Shown: positions 20,630 through 44,316 of the stretch, in pieces | How positions within the stretch are numbered: the first letter of the stretch is position 1 | How the letters are laid out: each line of letters begins with the position of its first letter | Origin: a virus | Lineage: Duplodnaviria; Heunggongvirae; Uroviricota; Caudoviricetes | DNA length: 64,000 nucleotides | IMG/VR virus record: IMGVR_UViG_2706795442_000001 | Strand: one strand, 5' to 3' | The notes under the pieces: model-generated | Database searches by the model: none | Seen by the model: only the letters and a program-made list of their open reading frames with translations | Told to the model about the DNA's origin: nothing | Position numbers and translations under genes: made by a program

Positions 20630-21595
20630 GTCGTGTAAAATGCCTATAAATTAATTGACTTTTTTATTTCTTTATGATATAATGACTATATATTTATATA
20701 TATAGGAGGATATTATATGAAAGAAATTTGGAAAGATGTTCCTAATTATGAAGGAAAATATCAAGTGTCTAATAAAGGAAGAGTTAAATCAATTAAAAGA
20801 ACAGTAAAACATAACGGGAGTAAAACTAGGACATTTCCAGAGAAGATTTTAAAACCAAACAAAGTGTCTTTTGATTATTTACAGGTCACATTATATAATA
20901 ATGGTAAAAGAAAATGTAGATATATACACAATTTAGTTATGGAATCTTTTATTGGTAAGAAGCCAAACGGTTATGAAGTTAACCATATAGACGAAGATAA
21001 ATCTAATAATCAATTAGAAAATTTAGAATATATAACAAGAAAAGAAAACAATAATTATGGAACTCGAATAGAACGGATGATTAAATCAAACGTTAATGGT
21101 AAAAAGAGTAAAAAAGTCAAAGGGACCCATTTAAAAACAGGAGAAATAGTTATTTTTCCATCAATATCCGAAGCGCAAAGACAAGGATATGGACCAAAAA
21201 TATCAGAAGTTTGCAATGGAAATAGAAATCATTCCGGTGGTTATAAATGGGAATTTATAAAATAGCACTGCATAGAAAGGAAACTACTATGTACTAAAAA
21301 CATAAATTGCTTAGAAGAACCTTAGAGCCTTAATGCCACAATATAGCTGAAAAGACTGTATGAAGGATTAAAAAGTTTAAGGATTGGTTTGTTTAGCATC
21401 GCTACTCCTAAGTCTTTTAGATATGGAGAACGTTCAACGACTAGACGATTGGCTCGTCGTAGGGTTTAAGTAAACTCGAAAGAAGAACTACCTAAGTATT
21501 TTATATATGGTAGAAAGATATAGTCTGGACACGCCTTTAATAGGGGTGCTAGGAATCGACCTAGAATTAGATTAACGACCTAATGAAACGTTTCG
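20630..21595 (+). mobile_element. group I intron 2 in the endolysin gene, carrying an HNH homing endonuclease
   Basis: The CHAP frame stops at 20636-20638. The amidase frame reopens after stops at 21581-21586. GUGUA at 20633-37 is complementary to the 3' exon start UACAC (P10). The intron shares the 16-nt core GAACGTTCAACGACTA with intron 1. Exact boundaries are tentative. Confidence 0.5.
20717..21265 (+). CDS. HNH homing endonuclease, I-HmuI-like (NUMOD4 + HNH_3)
   Basis: RBS TAGGAGGA is present. Motifs WKDVPNYEGKYQVSNKGRVKS and NHIDEDKSNNQLENLEYITRKEN are present. Confidence 0.8.
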   Translation: MKEIWKDVPNYEGKYQVSNKGRVKSIKRTVKHNGSKTRTFPEKILKPNKVSFDYLQVTLYNNGKRKCRYIHNLVMESFIGKKPNGYEVNHIDEDKSNNQLENLEYITRKENNNYGTRIERMIKSNVNGKKSKKVKGTHLKTGEIVIFPSISEAQRQGYGPKISEVCNGNRNHSGGYKWEFIK

Positions 21596-22438
21596 ATACA
21601 CAATGATGCCGGAAGTAAATATGCTACAGCAGAAGCTTATCGTAATGGATTAGTTAATGCTCCATTATCAAGACTTGAAGCCGGTATTGCGCATGCTTAC
21701 GGCTCCGGTAATACAATTTGGCAAGCATTAGATAAATCACAAGTAGGCTGGCACACAGCAAATCCTGTTGGTAACAACGGTTATTATGGTTATGAAGTTT
21801 GTCAATCTATGGGTGCAGATGACAAAACATTCTTAGCAAATGAACAACTAGTATTCCAAGATGCTGCTAGACTTTTAAAAGAAGAAGGACTACCAGCAAA
21901 CAGAAATACTGTTCGTCTACATTGTGAATTTGTTCGTACTTCATGTCCACATAGAAGTGCTAAACTACACACAGGATTTGACCCTGTTACTCAAGGTTTA
22001 TTACCTAAAGACAAACAGTTACAATTAAAAGATTATTTCATTAAACAAATCAGACAATATATGGATGGTAAAATACCTACTGCAACAGTTGTTAAAAGTA
22101 CAAGTGCTTCTAGTAACACTGTTAAACCAGTAGCATCTGGTTGGAAACGTAATAATTACGGCACTTATTATAAATCAGAAAATGCAACTTATAGCAATGG
22201 TAACACACCAATTATCACACGTACAGTAGGACCATTTAGAAGCTGTCCTCAAGCAGGATTGTTACCAGCTGGAGCAACTATTGTATATGATACAGTTTGT
22301 TTACAAGACTATCATGTTTGGGTAAGTTATGTAACTAACAAAGGTTACAGAGTATGGCTACCTATTAGAACATGGAATGGTGTAGCTCCTGGAAACGCAG
22401 GATATGCTGTAGGACCATTATGGGGATATATCAGCTAA
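21596..22438 (+). CDS. endolysin exon 3: amidase_2 (N-acetylmuramoyl-L-alanine amidase) plus SH3b cell-wall-binding domain
   Basis: Motifs IHNDAG…[18 protein letters not shown]…[15 protein letters not shown] are present. The SH3_5-like C-terminus reads [14 protein letters not shown]…[13 protein letters not shown]…[10 protein letters not shown]. Confidence 0.75.
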
Positions 22439-22480
22439 AATAAAAGACAGGTTTTATTCTGTATAAAAGTCGTCAACCAT

Positions 22481-22520
22481 GCGCTTTATAAGCGTTTTGT
22501 TAGGCGTACCTAACTTTTTT
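22481..22520 (+). terminator. tandem-hairpin intrinsic terminator after the lysin
   Basis: First stem GCGCTTtatAAGCG; second stem GTTAGGCGTACCTAAC; then TTTTTT. Confidence 0.6.
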
Positions 22521-22573
22521 ACCCTCTACTTTTTATGTAGGGGGGTATTTACATATTAATGGAGGTTATTATA

Positions 22574-23554
22574 ATGGAAAGAAACAATATTTATAGTGAA
22601 GAAATATATAATAAAGTAAATGATGAATCAAAAGAGCTTTTAAATGATTATATATTAGAGTTAAAGGTTCGTAACCGAGCTAAAAAAACAATTGCACAGT
22701 ATGAGTTTGATTGCAAAATGTTTATGTGTTATGTTTATGATAACATGAATAATAAATCATTACTCGATTTAAAACGTAGAGATTTTAGAAATTTCTTTTT
22801 ATTCTTAAAAGAAAGTGGTAAATCAGCAGCAAGAATTAATCGTGTTCAATCTTCAATAAGAAATCTTTTACAATTTGCAGAAGATGACGAAGAAATATAC
22901 GAAGATTATGAAGTTAATCCTATGAGAAAAATTAAATCAGTTGAGAAAGAACCTGTTAGAGAGATTGTGTTCTTAACAGATGAACAAGTTACTTATTTAA
23001 TTGATTATTTATTAGAGAAAGGTAAAACACAAAAAGCATTGTTTGTTAGTTTTGCTTATGATAGCGTAGCTCGTAGAAATGAAATATCACAAGTTCAAAA
23101 ATATAGTTTCCAAGACACAACTAAATCAAGCACTAACGAAGTTGTGGGTAAACGTGGGAAGAAATTTAAATTAATGTATTCTCAACGTACTAAAGACCTT
23201 GCTAAAGAATGGTTAGCTGAACGTGGAGAAGATAATGTTGATAGCTTGTGGATAAGTTATTATAATGGTAAACCACGTGCTATTGTATATGACACATTTT
23301 ATTCTTGGGCTATATCATTTAGAAGTATATTAGAAGAAAAATACGATGTAGATTTACCATTAAATGCTCACTCATTTCGTCATAGTGGAGCTGAAAACTA
23401 TGAAAATGGTACACATAGCTCATTACAATTTATGGGTAAAGATAGCTTAAACATAAACGAACTAAAAATATTAATGAATCATGAAAGTATTGATATTACT
23501 AATAGTTATTTAAGAAATAAAGACCAAGAAATATTGGAAAATTTATTCTCATAA
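22574..23554 (+). CDS. tyrosine recombinase / integrase family protein
   Basis: GGAGG lies 8 nt before ATG 22574. C-terminal motifs are AHSFRHSG (HxxR) and ITNSYL (catalytic Tyr). The N-terminus is SAM-like. Confidence 0.7.
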   Translation: MERNNIYSEEIYNKVNDESKELLNDYILELKVRNRAKKTIAQYEFDCKMFMCYVYDNMNNKSLLDLKRRDFRNFFLFLKESGKSAARINRVQSSIRNLLQFAEDDEEIYEDYEVNPMRKIKSVEKEPVREIVFLTDEQVTYLIDYLLEKGKTQKALFVSFAYDSVARRNEISQVQKYSFQDTTKSSTNEVVGKRGKKFKLMYSQRTKDLAKEWLAERGEDNVDSLWISYYNGKPRAIVYDTFYSWAISFRSILEEKYDVDLPLNAHSFRHSGAENYENGTHSSLQFMGKDSLNINELKILMNHESIDITNSYLRNKDQEILENLFS

Positions 23555-23555
23555 A

Positions 23556-23588
23556 AAACAAGACTACTGTAATAGTAGTCTTTATACA
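23556..23588. terminator. bidirectional terminator between convergent genes
   Basis: Stem AAGACTACTgtaatAGTAGTCTT flanked by an A-run and a T-run. Confidence 0.55.
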
Positions 23589-23590
23589 TA

Positions 23591-23911
23591 TTATTCTAAC
23601 TCTAAATAAGAGCCAATTATTTTAATATCTTTTGAATCAAAGTTGGCTAGGCTTTCAACAATATTAGCATTCAGTCCTCTAATATTAGCTACACCATCTA
23701 TAATTTCATCAACGTAAAACATAAGACCATCAATTTCTAACATATCAAATGTAAATATATTATTATTATTCTTGTCCACTTTTCCTACTGTTACACATGT
23801 AGTACAATGAATATTGTGATGTAGTCTACCAAAATTCCATTTATCATCATCAATAAGTTCTGCATTGTGATACATTATTTTATTAGCATTATCCCAAATT
23901 TTAAATTCCAT
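23591..23911 (-). CDS. YopX-like protein
   Basis: N-terminus MEFKIWDNANKIMYH matches the YopX start signature. Confidence 0.45.
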   Translation of the reverse strand: MEFKIWDNANKIMYHNAELIDDDKWNFGRLHHNIHCTTCVTVGKVDKNNNNIFTFDMLEIDGLMFYVDEIIDGVANIRGLNANIVESLANFDSKDIKIIGSYLELE

Positions 23912-24142
23912 TCATTCATCAACCTTTTCTAATTTTACTTTAGATAATACAGAATAATCTACTTCTCCTAGTTCAACTAAATCTAATAACATTTCGTCAT
24001 AAGATACATTGTTCATTATATATGAATACCTTTTAGCAATAACTTTTCTTAGTTGTTGAATAAATGTGTTAAATGACACTCTTCTATTTATTTGGTGGTG
24101 CAATTGAGCAAACCACTCTTTACTAGTTATTTGTTGCTCCAT
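23912..24142 (-). CDS. hypothetical protein
   Basis: ORF in a tightly packed minus-strand operon. Confidence 0.4.
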   Translation of the reverse strand: MEQQITSKEWFAQLHHQINRRVSFNTFIQQLRKVIAKRYSYIMNNVSYDEMLLDLVELGEVDYSVLSKVKLEKVDE

Positions 24143-24426
24143 ACATCCTCCTTAAGTGAATAGTAGTCTTCTGATATATTGTTTAAAATATATTCTTTGA
24201 CTAAATTATACTTTAAATTTTGATAACTATACCATCTTTCTAACATATCATAAGGGAAATAGATATAGTGTTTTTGTTTTGTTATCATATTGGTAATTTC
24301 AGCTTCTACCATATCTGGCAAATTATTATCTATTTCAGTCACTTTAAAATACTCAAAAGTCATTCTCTTTAGAATATTAGTGATTCTCTCTTTTATCATT
24401 AATAAATTCCTCCGGATAACTTGCAA
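24127..24426 (-). CDS. hypothetical protein
   Basis: ORF with start/stop overlap against its neighbour. Confidence 0.4.
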   Translation of the reverse strand: MQVIRRNLLMIKERITNILKRMTFEYFKVTEIDNNLPDMVEAEITNMITKQKHYIYFPYDMLERWYSYQNLKYNLVKEYILNNISEDYYSLKEDVWSNK

Positions 24427-24631
24427 TTGTTTTTACTGATGTTTCATATGGCGCTTTTAATGATAATGTTACTTGCGCTCCTAAAAATTCCTTATTTAAA
24501 CTAGTGTAATGAGATTTAACATTCACATTTAATACTTTATATCGTGGATAATTTTCAACAAACTCATTTAATCTATCGTTTAATTCTAAAATATCATTTC
24601 CATATACTTCATCAATAATTATTTTTTCCAT
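24377..24631 (-). CDS. hypothetical protein
   Basis: ORF present. Confidence 0.4.
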   Translation of the reverse strand: MEKIIIDEVYGNDILELNDRLNEFVENYPRYKVLNVNVKSHYTSLNKEFLGAQVTLSLKAPYETSVKTIASYPEEFINDKRENH

Positions 24632-24897
24632 TGTTTTTCCTCCTGTAAATTAACATCAATCTTAGTTGCCATATCTAATTTAATAAACATGCTTTGTAGT
24701 TCGAATTTAATTTTCTTTCCAATTATTTTGTTTTTTACTCCTTTTAATTTTCCTATTAAGGATATAGTTTCAAAAATCATATAACAAATATCATTATAAT
24801 CAGAAAGATATATGGCTTTTCTATTTTTATTATAGCATCTATTAAACTCAAAGTCAATTTGTCTTTTTAATTGTTTGATTTCTTCTAATAGCTCCAT
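24619..24897 (-). CDS. hypothetical protein
   Basis: ORF present. Confidence 0.4.
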   Translation of the reverse strand: MELLEEIKQLKRQIDFEFNRCYNKNRKAIYLSDYNDICYMIFETISLIGKLKGVKNKIIGKKIKFELQSMFIKLDMATKIDVNLQEEKQWKK

Positions 24898-24900
24898 TTA

Positions 24901-25434
24901 TCATTCTCCTTTTATCTCATTACACATATATTGTAACATATCTTGACTGTCTGCGTCAAGTACAATGTCAGCAAAATATGGAGCCGAAACAAATAAATCT
25001 CTGTCAACTGATAATCTTCTATTTACTTCATCAATAGAATCTCCACGTTCTTTTGCTCTCTGTCTGATTAAATCTTCAGAAGCATTTATATAAACGGAGG
25101 TTACTAAACTCCCAAACTCATCTTTAATAGCTCTAAGACCTTGTGGGTCAGTTATAACTATCTTTTCTTGTATTGGGATTAAATCTTCTTTTTTCATTGC
25201 ATAAATAAATGGCTCTTCTCTATATTTAGTATAAAAATATCTATGTCCAAAATATTGTGGCTTTTCTAGTTCTTCTGTTGAAACAAAATGATAATCTTTG
25301 CCATTAATTTCTCCATCTCTCATAGGTCTGTTAGTATATGTTGTTACTTGCTCAATTCCTGTAGATGTTACCAAATCTTTTACTAAAGTTGTTTTCCCAC
25401 TTAACATTTGACCAATTATTGCATATATTTCCAT
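24901..25434 (-). CDS. guanylate kinase-like nucleoside monophosphate kinase
   Basis: P-loop GQMLSGKTTL is present. TTYTNRPMRDGEINGKDYHFVS matches the Gmk TTRxPRxGExDGxDYxFvs motif. Confidence 0.6.
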   Translation of the reverse strand: MEIYAIIGQMLSGKTTLVKDLVTSTGIEQVTTYTNRPMRDGEINGKDYHFVSTEELEKPQYFGHRYFYTKYREEPFIYAMKKEDLIPIQEKIVITDPQGLRAIKDEFGSLVTSVYINASEDLIRQRAKERGDSIDEVNRRLSVDRDLFVSAPYFADIVLDADSQDMLQYMCNEIKGE

Positions 25435-25448
25435 AATAATTTTCTCCT

Positions 25449-25796
25449 TTATTTTTTGATATATACATCATATTTAGTGTCTAATTCTCTATGACCTGTT
25501 ATGAAATAAATTTTACTTTTCTTTGATACTGTATATGTTGTTTTCTTTATATAACTTTTATTGCTTTCATGTACTTTCACATCAACAGAAGATACTTCTG
25601 CTGTTTCATTGAATTGTTCTGCTGAAATTACTGTGCTAGTACTTTCTCTTAAAGCAAATGATTTAGGTAAATATAAAATGCGTATTAATGTTATAAAACC
25701 TACAATAGCTAAAATATAAAAGAAATTATTAAATCTAGTTACCCCTACATATAATGATACTACTGTCAAAACTAAAATAATAAAATAAAAAACCAT
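25449..25796 (-). CDS. membrane-anchored hypothetical protein
   Basis: N-terminus is hydrophobic. Confidence 0.4.
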   Translation of the reverse strand: MVFYFIILVLTVVSLYVGVTRFNNFFYILAIVGFITLIRILYLPKSFALRESTSTVISAEQFNETAEVSSVDVKVHESNKSYIKKTTYTVSKKSKIYFITGHRELDTKYDVYIKK

Positions 25797-25814
25797 ACTA
25801 ATAATAAACCCCCC

Positions 25815-26015
25815 TTAAATTATTCTATTAGCTTTCTCTAAAGCTAACAATAGTTCAGTCATTACATTTCTTTTTTCAGAATTAGAAACTGGTAAATCAA
25901 GATACTCCTTAATAATTTTATGTGCTTGAACATAACTTAGGTCATCAATACTTTCTGATTTACTTACTACTTTGTTTGCTTCATCATGTAAATTTTTAAT
26001 TTGTTTATTATTCAT
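25815..26015 (-). CDS. hypothetical protein
   Basis: ORF present. Confidence 0.35.
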   Translation of the reverse strand: MNNKQIKNLHDEANKVVSKSESIDDLSYVQAHKIIKEYLDLPVSNSEKRNVMTELLLALEKANRII

Positions 26016-41264: not shown

Positions 41265-41274
41265 TAATATATAA

Positions 41275-41889
41275 TTAATTTCCTAATTTTTCTAATTCGT
41301 CTTTAACTTCTTCCCAAGACATAAACCCTTTTCCATTTGTCAATTCTAGTATAACGCCATATAAAAATTGATTAAATGAAACTTCTGTTCTATAAGGGTC
41401 ACTATAAACATGACCATTACCTTCTCGAATATCAGAAGAATAGATAAGTACAGGTTTATCAATAATTTTTTGCTGTTCTTTAATTTCATCTTCTAATGTT
41501 TCAGCCACTTCTGTAATATTACCTTCCACATCACAATAATTAATATCTAAAATCTCTTTCAATCTATCAATTGTAATTTGTGCTTGCCTTTTCATACCAA
41601 GTAAAATGCTCAATTCTGAAATTGTTCCAGTAGCATGGTTCAGTATATCAAATGTAAAAATGTCACACTCTAGCATTGCATTATAATCGTTATTTAATAT
41701 TCTTTCAGCTAATCCTTCTTGTACAGCTTTAGATTTATCATTAATTGATTTATCATCACTAGGAGAATATGCTTCAATGCCGACAATCCCATTTAATTCG
41801 TCACGTTGTTTATTTCTGTATTCCACCATAGGTGTAGATAATAAGTCTCCACCTAAATAAACCTTTTTATCTTTGATTTCATTTACCAT
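41275..41889 (-). CDS. nucleoside 2-deoxyribosyltransferase-like protein
   Basis: N-terminus KVYLGGDLLS…R…EL fits the pattern of this family. Confidence 0.5.
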   Translation of the reverse strand: MVNEIKDKKVYLGGDLLSTPMVEYRNKQRDELNGIVGIEAYSPSDDKSINDKSKAVQEGLAERILNNDYNAMLECDIFTFDILNHATGTISELSILLGMKRQAQITIDRLKEILDINYCDVEGNITEVAETLEDEIKEQQKIIDKPVLIYSSDIREGNGHVYSDPYRTEVSFNQFLYGVILELTNGKGFMSWEEVKDELEKLGN

Positions 41890-41902
41890 ATTTTATTCTC
41901 CT

Positions 41903-42163
41903 TTATAAATATTTTCTTGCATAGTCTGAATACTCGTTTGCTTCTTTTACTCTAGGATATTTTACAATACTAAAAGCAATAATACCTATAGCTACGATAG
42001 GACTAATGAATAACAATCCTATTGTACCTACTGTTATTTGTAAGAAGAAGCCTACACTCTCAATTACATACCAACCAACAATTAAAGATAATGTTAATCC
42101 AACAATCCATAATAACTTACTCCAAAAATTGCCTTTTTGAAAACTGTATGATAGTTTTTTCAT
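41903..42163 (-). CDS. small membrane protein (two TM)
   Basis: Hydrophobic. Confidence 0.4.
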   Translation of the reverse strand: MKKLSYSFQKGNFWSKLLWIVGLTLSLIVGWYVIESVGFFLQITVGTIGLLFISPIVAIGIIAFSIVKYPRVKEANEYSDYARKYL

Positions 42164-42175
42164 AATTTTATTCTC

Positions 42176-42541
42176 CTATTCAAGTCCATATTGTAGTCTC
42201 TTTTGTGCCATTTTAAAATATTCATCTGATAATTCATAACCAATAAAATCACGATTTAATTTTTGGCAAGCCACTCCAGTAGTACCACTACCCATAAATG
42301 GGTCAAGAATAGTATCGCCTTCATTTGTAAGTCTCTCTAATAACCATTCCATAGCATATAAAGTTTTCTGTGTTGGGTGTCCTTTATCAACCTTTTGCGA
42401 TTTAGGTGTAACAGTTGTTTCAATTAAAGGTCTTTCATATTTTTCATCTAATCTATTGAAAGTCCATTTAGCACCTTTTTTAACAAAATATAATGCAAAT
42501 TCTGTATCAAAAATAAAACGTCTATCTCGATTACGTGGCAT
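42176..42541 (-). pseudogene. DNA methyltransferase, C-terminal part (N6_N4_Mtase-type)
   Basis: Motifs HPTQKTL…ILDPFMGSGTTGVA…RDFIGYELSDEYFKMAQKRL are present. There is no RBS before its ATG. It overlaps the N-terminal ORF by 94 nt in the -1 frame. Confidence 0.6.
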
Positions 42542-42843
42542 AGGAGTGGATTTGTAATAATATTGTCATAAGTTCTAAAACCTTCTTTTAAAAAGTCTTT
42601 GTTATCTTCCCCATAACCTCTGTTTATTAAATCATTGGAGTGTACTTCAAACCCTTTTTTCTTTAATACTTCTGATATATGTCCTTCTCCACAACATGGT
42701 TCTAATACATTCCCCTTAAATTCCTCTACTTCTAATAATTTTAAAGTGCTCTCTGGTGGAGTAGCATAATAATCATTCTCTACCCTATCTCTTGTAGTTG
42801 ATGTTCCTGATAAAGATGTTCCTGTTAAATATTTTTCACTCAT
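42448..42843 (-). pseudogene. DNA adenine/cytosine methyltransferase, N-terminal part (frame-disrupted; overlaps the C-terminal part)
   Basis: RBS AAGGAGAG is present. Motifs YYATPPE and VLEPCCGEG (AdoMet-binding) are present. DNIITNPLL sits where NPPY/DPPY is expected. Confidence 0.55.
42475..42481 (-). promoter_or_regulatory. A_AAA_AAG slippery heptamer in the methyltransferase ORF overlap
   Basis: In the upstream frame the codons read TTA AAA AAG. A -1 slip enters the downstream frame (AAA AAA GGT). The sequence is identical to the dnaX-type site. Confidence 0.4.
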
Positions 42844-42857
42844 AAGTTTACTCTCCT

Positions 42858-42956
42858 TTATATTCTTTTAATCTTTCTACTCTTTTTATATTTGTCATCT
42901 TGTGTCTTAGTGCTTGTATATATTTGTTTGACTTCTTCCTTTGTTAGTTTATTCAT
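42858..42956 (-). CDS. small basic ORF (32 aa)
   Basis: RBS AGGGAGG lies before ATG 42956. Its stop overlaps the methyltransferase RBS. Confidence 0.3.
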   Translation of the reverse strand: MNKLTKEEVKQIYTSTKTQDDKYKKSRKIKRI

Positions 42957-42978
42957 AAAAAGCCTCCCTGTATGATAT

Positions 42979-43007
42979 ATTGTATAACAGGGAGATATAA
43001 ATGTCAA
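42979..43007 (-). promoter_or_regulatory. promoter TTGACA-17-TACAAT
   Basis: Minus strand reads TTGACA tttatatctccctgtta TACAAT. Confidence 0.5.
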
Positions 43008-43027
43008 TATACTTTTTTTAATATTTT

Positions 43028-43783
43028 TTATTTCCAATTAAAATTGTCTGCAAACTGTGCTATTTTACTTCTAAAGTTGGTTGTAAAGTGGTGGTATGCT
43101 GCACCTTGATAGTCTTCTGATTTAAAATAATTTACATAAGGCTCGAATCCCGATTTACTATTTTGTTTTAAATCAATTTGTCTATAGTTACCTTCAACAA
43201 CACATTTAGAATTAGAATGTAATCTTGTCAACACTTTCTTTAATTCAGAACGTTTAAAATTCTGCGCTTCATTTATAACTACTGTAACGTTTTTTAAATT
43301 TCCACCACGTAAAAATAAATGAGATATTTGAGACACCCAGCAATCTAACAATTTATTTTCTTCATGGTTTTCGTCCATTAACAACATTTCCGTTATGACT
43401 TGCTCTGGAACCATATTTAATTCTGTGATAGCATCGTGCAATCCCATAAAATATGCCATTTCTTTTTCTGTTTGATTTCCTGGTCTGCTACCTAAATCTT
43501 CTGAAACTGGTGCAATAATAAACACTAATTTCTTACCTTTGTTTAACCAATCTGCATAAGCACATGCAACACTGCACATGGTCTTCCCTGTACCTGCTGG
43601 ACTTTCGTTAAACAAAATCTCTATATCATCATTAAAAAAGTCTTCACAAAATTGTAATTGTTCTTGTGTAGCCTTATTTAAAAAATCATCAAATACTGTA
43701 TGTTCTAGCATGTTGTATTGTACTAACGGAAAATTTTGTAATTTATATTTTAACTCTTTATCCATTTTTGCCAAAGTTATCAT
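43028..43783 (-). CDS. PhoH-like ATPase
   Basis: Walker A SPAGTGKT is present. The PhoH motif INEAQNF…TRLHSNSKCVVEGN is present. Confidence 0.75.
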   Translation of the reverse strand: MITLAKMDKELKYKLQNFPLVQYNMLEHTVFDDFLNKATQEQLQFCEDFFNDDIEILFNESPAGTGKTMCSVACAYADWLNKGKKLVFIIAPVSEDLGSRPGNQTEKEMAYFMGLHDAITELNMVPEQVITEMLLMDENHEENKLLDCWVSQISHLFLRGGNLKNVTVVINEAQNFKRSELKKVLTRLHSNSKCVVEGNYRQIDLKQNSKSGFEPYVNYFKSEDYQGAAYHHFTTNFRSKIAQFADNFNWK

Positions 43784-44316
43784 CCTTTATATATGTTCTC
43801 ATAATAGTATACATTGAGAGCAATAGCATCTGCTACGTCATCAAGTAACTTACCTCTTTCTGTGTATATTTCTGGCATATCACTTGAAAAATAAGCTTTT
43901 AAAAATTCTGCTACTATTTCTTTTTTATTGAATTGTTTTAACTCTTCTTTTGTATAAAAACATTTATTAATTAAATATTTTTTACAATATGCTTTTAATG
44001 TTGCATTATGAATATCTTGTATATCAATATTTTTCTGATAAAGAATATATTCAAGAATAGCATGAGCATATAGAACATTTTTGGCAGTCGAAGATTTTCC
44101 TATAATACTACCCTCTTTACATATAATATCTGGTTTATACTCATCTATAATTGATAATATATCATTTATATGTTTTTCAATCCTCTCAATAGGTTCACAC
44201 TTCTTATCTGAGACTAATAATCTAGACAATAAAATCTGTATTTTACCATCTTTAATTTCTGCTACGCATGTACCTGACTTAGCATACGAGTAATCCAGCG
44301 ACGCAATAATTATAAT
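43780..44316 (-). CDS. RuvC-like Holliday junction resolvase; probable non-ATG (ATT/ATA) start
   Basis: The RuvC N-terminus IIIASLDYSYAKSGTCVAEIKDG (catalytic Asp) is encoded upstream of the first TTG/ATG. DDVADAIALNVYY is at the C-terminus. RBS GAAAGGGGAG lies at 44322-44331. No ATG/GTG/TTG occurs between the upstream stop (44344-46) and the catalytic Asp. Confidence 0.55.
   Translation of the reverse strand: MIIIASLDYSYAKSGTCVAEIKDGKIQILLSRLLVSDKKCEPIERIEKHINDILSIIDEYKPDIICKEGSIIGKSSTAKNVLYAHAILEYILYQKNIDIQDIHNATLKAYCKKYLINKCFYTKEELKQFNKKEIVAEFLKAYFSSDMPEIYTERGKLLDDVADAIALNVYYYENIYKG

Follow-up and report, generated by a model that had tools for sequence, protein, structure and literature searches.

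A locus with two overlapping methyltransferase frames

Do two overlapping reading frames that both resemble DNA methyltransferases form one enzyme split across a recoding site, or are they what is left of something else? The question is raised by a locus in a stretch of 64,000 nucleotides of Caudoviricetes DNA (the whole stretch is hereafter the window), in which two open reading frames, ORF A and ORF B, share an overlap that contains a slippery heptamer. The original prediction saw in them the two halves of one methyltransferase and offered three readings: a programmed -1 frameshift of the dnaX type, a phase-variable A6 run that switches the enzyme on and off, and a decaying pseudogene. The ORF coordinates, strand, overlap, and heptamer position and register on which it was built are all confirmed in the sequence. 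It is the third reading that turned out to be correct: judging from the comparisons described below, the locus is very probably a recent deletion pseudogene made from two neighbouring, unrelated methyltransferase genes, and neither a site of recoding nor a phase-variable switch. The elements in question are:

42448-42843, minus strand: ORF A, 131 aa
42176-42541, minus strand: ORF B, 121 aa, overlapping ORF A by 94 nt
42475-42481, minus strand: A_AAA_AAG heptamer with the A6 run, the inherited Lys-Lys codons of a 051-type gene (GTT AAA AAA GGT, FVKKG)

The window is 100% identical to Staphylococcus phage 6ec (KJ804259, and its RefSeq copy NC_024355), a virulent siphophage of S. epidermidis that belongs to the genus Sextaecvirus and has a G+C content of 29.3% (PMC4125762). 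In the GenBank/RefSeq annotation ORF A is PHAGE6E_89 and ORF B is PHAGE6E_88, two separate genes named 'methyltransferase' or 'DNA methyltransferase'. A megablast search with window positions 41900-43100 against 50,697 phage records matched 48 Staphylococcus phage records, and the match was in one piece in the two 6ec records only. Twillingate and vB_SepM_BE06-09/BE24, which are myoviruses, have this region in three pieces spread over ~2.65 kb. Indeed, Twillingate, the vB_SepM_BE series and PG-2021_46 carry intact, separate methyltransferase genes at this locus. The gene order in Twillingate, and the content of the interval between the PhoH-like gene and the membrane-protein gene in the relatives, are as follows:

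Twillingate, gene order: PhoH-like gene; 32-aa ORF; Twillingate_052 ('SAM-dependent methyltransferase', 193 aa); Twillingate_051 ('site-specific DNA methyltransferase', 229 aa); Twillingate_050 (second such enzyme, 271 aa); 86-aa membrane protein
Twillingate and the BE phages, interval: three methyltransferase genes
SEP9, interval: HNH endonuclease, a different beta-class enzyme and an intact 052-type gene
PG-2021_46 (a sextaecvirus), interval: 168-aa ORF, intact 051-type gene and truncated 050-type gene
CF1 and the S-CoN phages, interval: 168-aa ORF only

By its gene content, this interval is a variable spot in these phages.

ORF A is the front of a gamma-like methyltransferase

The original prediction gave ORF A a good ribosome-binding site and ORF B none, and this holds: GGAGAG lies 7 nt upstream of ORF A, and no Shine-Dalgarno sequence is present in the 25 nt before the ATG of ORF B. 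The region upstream of ORF A and the two parts into which ORF A divides are:

42979-43007, minus strand: promoter-like site TTGACA-17-TACAAT (11/12; a consensus match only), upstream of a small ORF and of the methyltransferase remnants
42851-42856, minus strand: Shine-Dalgarno sequence GGAGAG of ORF A, with a 7-nt spacer to the ATG, read from the sequence
42547-42843, minus strand: fragment 1, the first 99 codons of a gene for a small gamma-like DNA methyltransferase of 193 aa (orthologue of Twillingate_052 / SEP9_058)
42448-42546, minus strand: out-of-frame tail of ORF A (LLCHVIEIDVLFLIQNLHYILLKKVLNGLSID, then stop), a reading of 051-type coding DNA in the incorrect (+1) frame up to the first stop

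Over its first 99 residues ORF A is 100% identical to residues 1-99 of Twillingate_052 and 99% identical to SEP9_058 (tblastn); at the nucleotide level, these codons differ from Twillingate_052 by 1 nt in 294 nt, and the change is synonymous. Window positions 42546-43100 align to Twillingate L001 3593-4146, which lies in Twillingate_052 and DNA upstream of it, at 97.5% (local BLAST). The match of ORF A to the phrog_799 profile ('DNA methyltransferase', E 1.4e-34) runs through residue 99 only and covers profile positions 195-291, and the intact Twillingate_052 covers positions 195-379. The motifs YYATPPE, VLEPCCGEG and ...IITNP are common to ORF A and to Twillingate_052 and SEP9_058. Unlike these two proteins, however, ORF A lacks residues 100-193 together with the PY of NPPY, and has 32 out-of-frame residues in their place. 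Fragment 1 ends in ...DNIITNP, so that the NPPY motif is severed after NP (...DNIITNPPYKYAKEF... in Twillingate_052, ...DNIITNPLLCHVIEI... in ORF A), and ORF A gives no full-length phrog_799 match comprising NPPY and the C-terminal half. No exact copy of the ORF A product was found in the protein collection, and no solved structure is related in sequence to the 052-type protein. Judging from its sequence signals, ORF A probably still yields its truncated product of 131 aa.

ORF B is the back of a beta-class methyltransferase

ORF B belongs to a different gene. It lies within a second fragment, which corresponds to the end of an enzyme of another class:

42176-42545, minus strand: fragment 2 (ORF B included), the last 121 codons of the gene for a beta-class N6-adenine methyltransferase of 229 aa (orthologue of Twillingate_051 / Romulus_056)

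ORF B is 95.9% identical in amino acids to residues 109-229 of Twillingate_051. Window positions 42168-42553 align at 93.5% to Twillingate L001 2542-2927, the 3′ part of Twillingate_051, and at 96.4% to the orthologue in PG-2021_46 (local BLAST for both). ORF B contains HPTQKT ... LDPFMGSGTTG, that is, the C-terminal AdoMet motif (FxGxG) placed after the HPTQKP helix, and it shares HPTQK and LDPFMGSGTTG with the Twillingate_051 / Romulus_056 type. What it does not share with them is residues 1-108: the N-terminal 108 residues of the 229-aa enzyme, DPPY included, are missing. Accordingly, its match to Pfam N6_N4_Mtase (PF01555; E 4.7e-26) covers only positions 86-221 of the 221 in the profile and is not that of a complete beta-class domain with its N-terminal DPPY motif, and Twillingate_051, with an early ...AIITDPPYNI..., covers positions 1-221.

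A structural counterpart is available for the intact enzyme. The alignment of Twillingate_051 with PDB 5hek_A / 5hfj_A runs over the full length (E 2.5e-64), entries 5HEK and 5HFJ being M1.HpyAVI of H. pylori, a dimeric beta-class N6-adenine methyltransferase. The AdoMet pocket of M1.HpyAVI is formed by residues 7-9, 29-31 (DPPY), 165-167, 216-218 and 221, and its dimer interface involves R86, D93 and E96 (PMC5173035). ORF B corresponds only to the part of M1.HpyAVI after about residue 113 and, unlike that enzyme, has neither the catalytic loop nor the dimer-interface residues, and lacks part of the cofactor pocket; residues 7-9, 29-31, R86, D93 and E96 all lie N-terminal to the part that ORF B represents.

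Profile matching of both frames, which the original prediction had itself proposed as a check, hence identifies ORF A and ORF B as unrelated truncated genes, an outcome that it had named as a refutation. They are fragments of two different genes and not two halves of one methyltransferase, which also explains the mixture of gamma-type motifs at the N-terminus with a beta-type C-terminus that had been noticed as odd. A tblastn search with five related proteins found no other methyltransferase homologue in the window outside 42176-42843.

ORF B is open over all of its 121 codons, and the substitutions in it fit its frame. A recent deletion predicts this, and continued selection on ORF B would fit it, too.

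A 673-nt deletion joins the two fragments

The point at which the two genes meet was placed by a base-by-base three-way comparison together with the boundaries of the BLAST segments:

42545-42546, minus strand: deletion breakpoint, 42546/42545

As far as 42546 the 6ec sequence agrees with the 052-type gene, and at 42545 agreement with the 051-type gene alone begins; this placement was made against relatives that are 93-97% identical, not against the exact parental alleles. The breakpoint (...ACAAATCCAC|TCCTATGCC... in 6ec) falls in the TNP codons (42541-42549), where a second possible junction had been suspected. The Twillingate segment that is absent from 6ec, L001 2920-3592, measures 673 nt, one base more than 224 codons. 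Since 673 is 1 mod 3, the 051-type sequence is entered out of frame. Both flanks are therefore those of a deletion pseudogene: they are collinear with intact genes, the 673-nt segment between them is kept in Twillingate, and the reading frame is disrupted.

On the 052 side the last 8 nt before the breakpoint (42553-42546) are AAATCCAC. Their 051 counterpart is AAATCAAA in PG-2021_46, a 6/8 match, and AAGTCAAA in Twillingate, a 5/8 match. We also considered a perfect 8-nt microhomology, in which a parental 051 allele encoding K-S-T-P would itself have carried AAATCCAC, and found it unlikely. The back-translated pattern K-S-T-P-M-P-R-N-R-D had 0 matches in IMG/VR, compared with 22 for K-S-N-P-M-P-R-N-R-D, and from this difference it is likely that the Thr codon arose through the junction itself and that the microhomology was imperfect. 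The relatives all have K-S-N-P-M-P-R-N-R, even an enzyme of an Enterococcus phage that is 61% identical. A search for the 6ec-specific 051 allele beside the junction gave no match.

The junction is particular to 6ec. None of the other 46 phage records that matched contains it, and exact matches to its sequence are lacking from IMG/VR, from a genome set with one member for each of 185,579 species and from the JGI metagenomes. Being known from a single isolate, it might be ascribed to an error of assembly or to an event during laboratory propagation, with wild 6ec carrying intact genes. The Sanger verification of the genome covered only ~30 kb, and the region of the junction is not specified as included (PMC4125762). 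However, the genome was sequenced by Illumina HiSeq at 23,668-fold coverage (PMC4125762), at which a homopolymer error is unlikely, and an assembler would have had no repeat to collapse, since an imperfect 8-mer is all that the parental sites have in common. Moreover, a deletion that arose in the laboratory would still be a real deletion pseudogene, and only the artefact half of this proposal differs from our explanation. We consider it very unlikely.

The deletion that created the frame overlap is not the only difference between 6ec and its relatives at this locus. A second junction is visible at the end of the 051-type gene:

42173-42177, minus strand: second junction AGGAG, a Shine-Dalgarno sequence common to the 050-type gene and the downstream membrane-protein gene

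In Twillingate the two AGGAG copies are 821 nt apart, and the Twillingate_050 cassette between them is missing from 6ec, where ...GGACTTGAATAGGAGAATAAAATTATG... leads from the end of the 051-type gene straight into the start of the membrane-protein gene. The absence of the 050-type gene could reflect a clean deletion in 6ec or insertion of the cassette in the others; either way it damages no reading frame.

The heptamer and the A6 run are inherited

We then considered whether the overlap could be a site of recoding. Under this proposal, -1 slippage at A_AAA_AAG (42481-42475) would fuse ORF A to ORF B into a functional chimeric methyltransferase of 222 aa. Several features speak for it. The frame A codons TTA AAA AAG place the heptamer in the X_XXY_YYZ register and frame B is the -1 frame, and the ribosome-binding site is good on ORF A and missing on ORF B. 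The -1 frameshift site of E. coli dnaX is A_AAA_AAG, too, and 6ec shares both heptamer and register with it. The dnaX site also has an upstream Shine-Dalgarno-like stimulator and a downstream stem-loop.

Nevertheless, the heptamer pre-exists in intact genes. Twillingate_051, the PG-2021_46 orthologue and Romulus_056 all have (G/A)TT AAA AAA GG(C/T/A), which encodes (V/I)-K-K-G in a single reading frame. Since all the intact orthologues examined have them, heptamer and A6 run were inherited and did not evolve for recoding. Nor is the heptamer rare: AAAAAAG occurs 65 times in the 64-kb window, and dinucleotide-preserving shuffles give 52 +/- 7, so its occurrence is no more than chance gives. Unlike E. 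coli dnaX, the 6ec site has no stimulators. Downstream, 80 nt fold at -6.7 kcal/mol, which is no different from shuffled sequences (z = 0.03) and thus provides no stimulatory structure; upstream, no Shine-Dalgarno-like (GGAGG-like) element is present in the 30 nt before the heptamer (TTTGATACAGAATTTGCATTATATTTTGTT). Again unlike dnaX, the arrangement is unconserved and its trans-frame product is not sensible: the orthologues are intact single-frame genes, and the two frames are found joined in no other sequence of the four collections searched (phage records, IMG/VR, genomes and metagenomes). Finally, the two halves come from different genes, and their fusion contains two motif-I segments and 23 nonsense residues and no (D/N)PP(Y/F) catalytic motif. 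These observations make a programmed frameshift extremely improbable.

The same run of six A could be read as a phase-variable tract, in which replication slippage from A6 to A7 would switch the fused methyltransferase on; one additional A would indeed join frame A to frame B. Contingency tracts known so far are usually 8 nt or longer. The 6ec tract has only 6 nt and has the same length, encoding KK, in all intact orthologues examined (Twillingate, PG-2021_46 and Romulus). Furthermore, neither tract length restores a functional gene: the 'on' product of an A7 allele would be the same catalytically incomplete chimera as that of the frameshift. Illumina reads at 23,668-fold coverage give A6 as the consensus (PMC4125762). 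A phase-variable switch is hence extremely unlikely here.

The trans-frame product is a chimera of two families

To these arguments we can add the nature of the protein itself. Either a -1 slip or an A7 allele would yield 222 aa, not the approximately 217 aa first estimated, made of 99 residues of enzyme 1, 23 nonsense residues and 100 residues of enzyme 2; the trans-frame peptide would read ...HYILLKKGAKWTFNR.... The 222-aa product contains no [DNS]PP[YFWH] catalytic motif and has two AdoMet-binding motif-I segments. Its halves belong to two different families and do not make a coherent protein. A tblastn search with it against the 50,697 phage records gave no fused gene among the matches listed, and the listed records that cover both halves carry two adjacent genes. 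If occasional -1 slippage did produce a little of this chimera, its two AdoMet-binding modules might make of it a decoy for AdoMet or DNA rather than a methyltransferase, which we regard as exceedingly unlikely.

One group of matches at first looked continuous across the junction, that of Enterococcus phages phiSHEF4/11. The protein concerned is an ordinary full-length beta-class enzyme of 228 aa, 61% identical to Twillingate_051, over which BLAST had extended the match by chance similarity.

Codon substitutions and the state of the fragments

We counted the codons of the ORF B DNA that differ between 6ec and two relatives, in both frames. Against Twillingate, synonymous and non-synonymous differences stand at 13:5 in frame B and at 5:13 in frame A; against Romulus, they stand at 36:22 in frame B and at 7:50 in frame A. 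On these counts the history of selection is in frame B only, and the tail of ORF A reads as noise. The deletion is the sole damage, and the codons that are left still have, in their native frames, the appearance of selected ones. For these two reasons the event is probably recent.

Such preservation might also be expected if the fragments had been kept for a new, non-catalytic role, be it that of the 131-aa ORF A product, as an AdoMet-binding half-domain, or that of the ORF B product. ORF A retains a promoter-like site, a ribosome-binding site and 99 unaltered residues, and ORF B is still open with mostly synonymous substitutions. However, a recent deletion predicts the same pattern. In addition, no other phage among the matches listed keeps such fragments in the form seen in 6ec, ORF B has no ribosome-binding site, and half of a Rossmann-type domain would be unlikely to fold. 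There is accordingly very little probability in a new role. Neither of the fragments has a complete catalytic domain, and their fusion would not have one either, and because of this 6ec has most likely lost these methyltransferase activities.

A history for the locus

The deletion pseudogene can be given the following history. The ancestor of 6ec would have carried the methyltransferase gene cassette of its relatives, between the PhoH-like gene and the small membrane-protein gene. Its first gene would have encoded a 193-aa gamma-like enzyme of the Twillingate_052 type and its second a 229-aa beta-class N6-adenine enzyme of the Twillingate_051 type, similar to M1.HpyAVI; the third, found in some relatives, would be the 271-aa beta-class enzyme of the Twillingate_050 type. 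One illegitimate recombination then presumably removed 673 nt, from codon 100 of gene 1 to codon 107 of gene 2, in which the imperfect match between the 8 nt AAATCCAC and AAATCAAA may have helped. This would have placed the back of gene 2 behind the front of gene 1 in the wrong frame. Ribosomes that start at the gene 1 ribosome-binding site, which is intact, would now make 99 native and 32 nonsense residues, which is ORF A. ORF B would be the surviving native frame of gene 2, with a chance start at an internal Met and without a ribosome-binding site of its own. The overlap of the frames and the A_AAA_AAG within it would both be by-products, the heptamer being the ancestral Lys-Lys pair of gene 2.

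The dnaX-type frameshift and the A6 switch of the original prediction both fall with this history. The first fails on a heptamer that is an ancestral Lys-Lys pair, on the lack of downstream structure and on a fusion devoid of a catalytic motif, and the second on a tract that is unchanged in Twillingate, PG-2021_46 and Romulus and on an 'on' product that would not be functional.

As to what this means, the annotation of PHAGE6E_88 and PHAGE6E_89 should become that of remnants of two genes, and self-methylation should not be assumed for 6ec, unlike what its relatives may do. This has a modest bearing on predictions of host range and restriction evasion for S. epidermidis phages considered for therapy, and little significance beyond annotation. 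The locus also shows how a false positive can arise: in a genome rich in AT, where Lys-Lys codons provide roughly 1 slippery heptamer per kilobase, a deletion that shifts the frame can look like a recoding site.

Remnants of this kind are found in other phages as well. The 050-type gene of PG-2021_46 is cut short at the HPTQK motif (211 aa, ending in ...HPNCLY before the stop), and Romulus_054 is a 52-aa remnant that is 84% identical to the C-terminus of Twillingate_050. Both are truncations of a single gene, whereas the 6ec deletion spans two genes and creates overlapping frames. As far as these sequences tell, decayed methyltransferase genes recur at the PhoH-like/membrane-protein locus, and that of 6ec is one more remnant.

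Probable exchange of a common module between phages

Window 41274-43759 of Staphylococcus phage 6ec and positions 20963-25857 of the Twillingate record form a common module, with 65-97% nucleotide identity, that spans the nucleoside deoxyribosyltransferase gene, the membrane-protein gene, the methyltransferase genes and PhoH. Within it, the fragment of the 193-aa gamma-like (052-type) methyltransferase gene differs between the two phages by 1 nt in 294. The partners are a siphovirus (6ec, Sextaecvirus) and a myovirus (Twillingate, Herelleviridae, Sepunavirus), and their likeness in this module points to its having passed recently from one S. epidermidis phage to another, unrelated one. Two 6ec genes annotated as hypothetical have named counterparts in related records:

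41275-41889, minus strand: nucleoside 2-deoxyribosyltransferase (CF1_0071, Twillingate_047)
43780-44229, minus strand: Holliday junction resolvase (CF1_0075)

The interval from the PhoH-like gene to the 86-aa membrane-protein gene (window 42161-43030, compared with the relatives' segments L001, L003, L005 and L006) is a variable cargo spot.

Content of the cargo spot in related phages
Twillingate and BE phages: methyltransferase genes (n=3)
SEP9: HNH endonuclease and methyltransferase genes (n=2)
PG-2021_46: 168-aa ORF and methyltransferase genes
CF1 and S-CoN phages: 168-aa ORF only

Methyltransferase genes in relatives

The gene for the 271-aa beta-class (050-type) enzyme is decayed in two relatives. 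In PG-2021_46 (L003 1857-2492) it is cut off at the HPTQK motif, giving a product of 211 aa that ends in INGLIHPNCLY, and an internal deletion has taken out the AdoMet motif region. In Romulus, a 52-aa ORF named 'DNA methylase' (Romulus_054, L004 814-972) lies upstream of Romulus_056; it is what is left of the C-terminal end of a Twillingate_050-type enzyme, with 84% identity to residues 232-269.

ORF B, the C-terminal fragment of the 229-aa beta-class (051-type) gene, reads HPTQKT in 6ec (window 42362-42379, minus strand), as does PG-2021_46, whereas Twillingate, Romulus and the Enterococcus phages phiSHEF have HPTQKP at this position and the H. pylori enzyme M1.HpyAVI has HPTQKS. Because the full-length PG-2021_46 gene also carries HPTQKT, this change is older than the deletion that joined the two methyltransferase gene fragments in 6ec.

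A small ORF upstream of the methyltransferase remnants

Two further features lie upstream of ORF A:

42858-42956, minus strand: 32-aa ORF (MNKLTKEEVKQIYTSTKTQDDKYKKSRKIKRI), inside the annotated PHAGE6E_90 (42858-43037)
within 42960-43010, minus strand: near-consensus promoter-like site, TTGACA-17-TACAAT (11/12 consensus match)

The ORF appears to be left over from a 168-aa gene that PG-2021_46 and CF1 carry; in the S-CoN phages this gene is named 'transcriptional repressor'. Its first ~19 residues survive together with one short internal piece, window 42900-43100 matching L003 3715-3917 and window 42869-42901 matching L003 3409-3440 in PG-2021_46; Twillingate has this remnant too. PHAGE6E_90 is annotated in 6ec as 59 aa from a TTG start, overlapping the PhoH gene, and this annotation is probably too long. 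An inverted repeat, CTCCCTGT ... ACAGGGAG, encloses the -10 region of the promoter-like site between its arms, and its 3' arm overlaps the GGGAGG sequence that is the ribosome-binding site for the 32-aa ORF.
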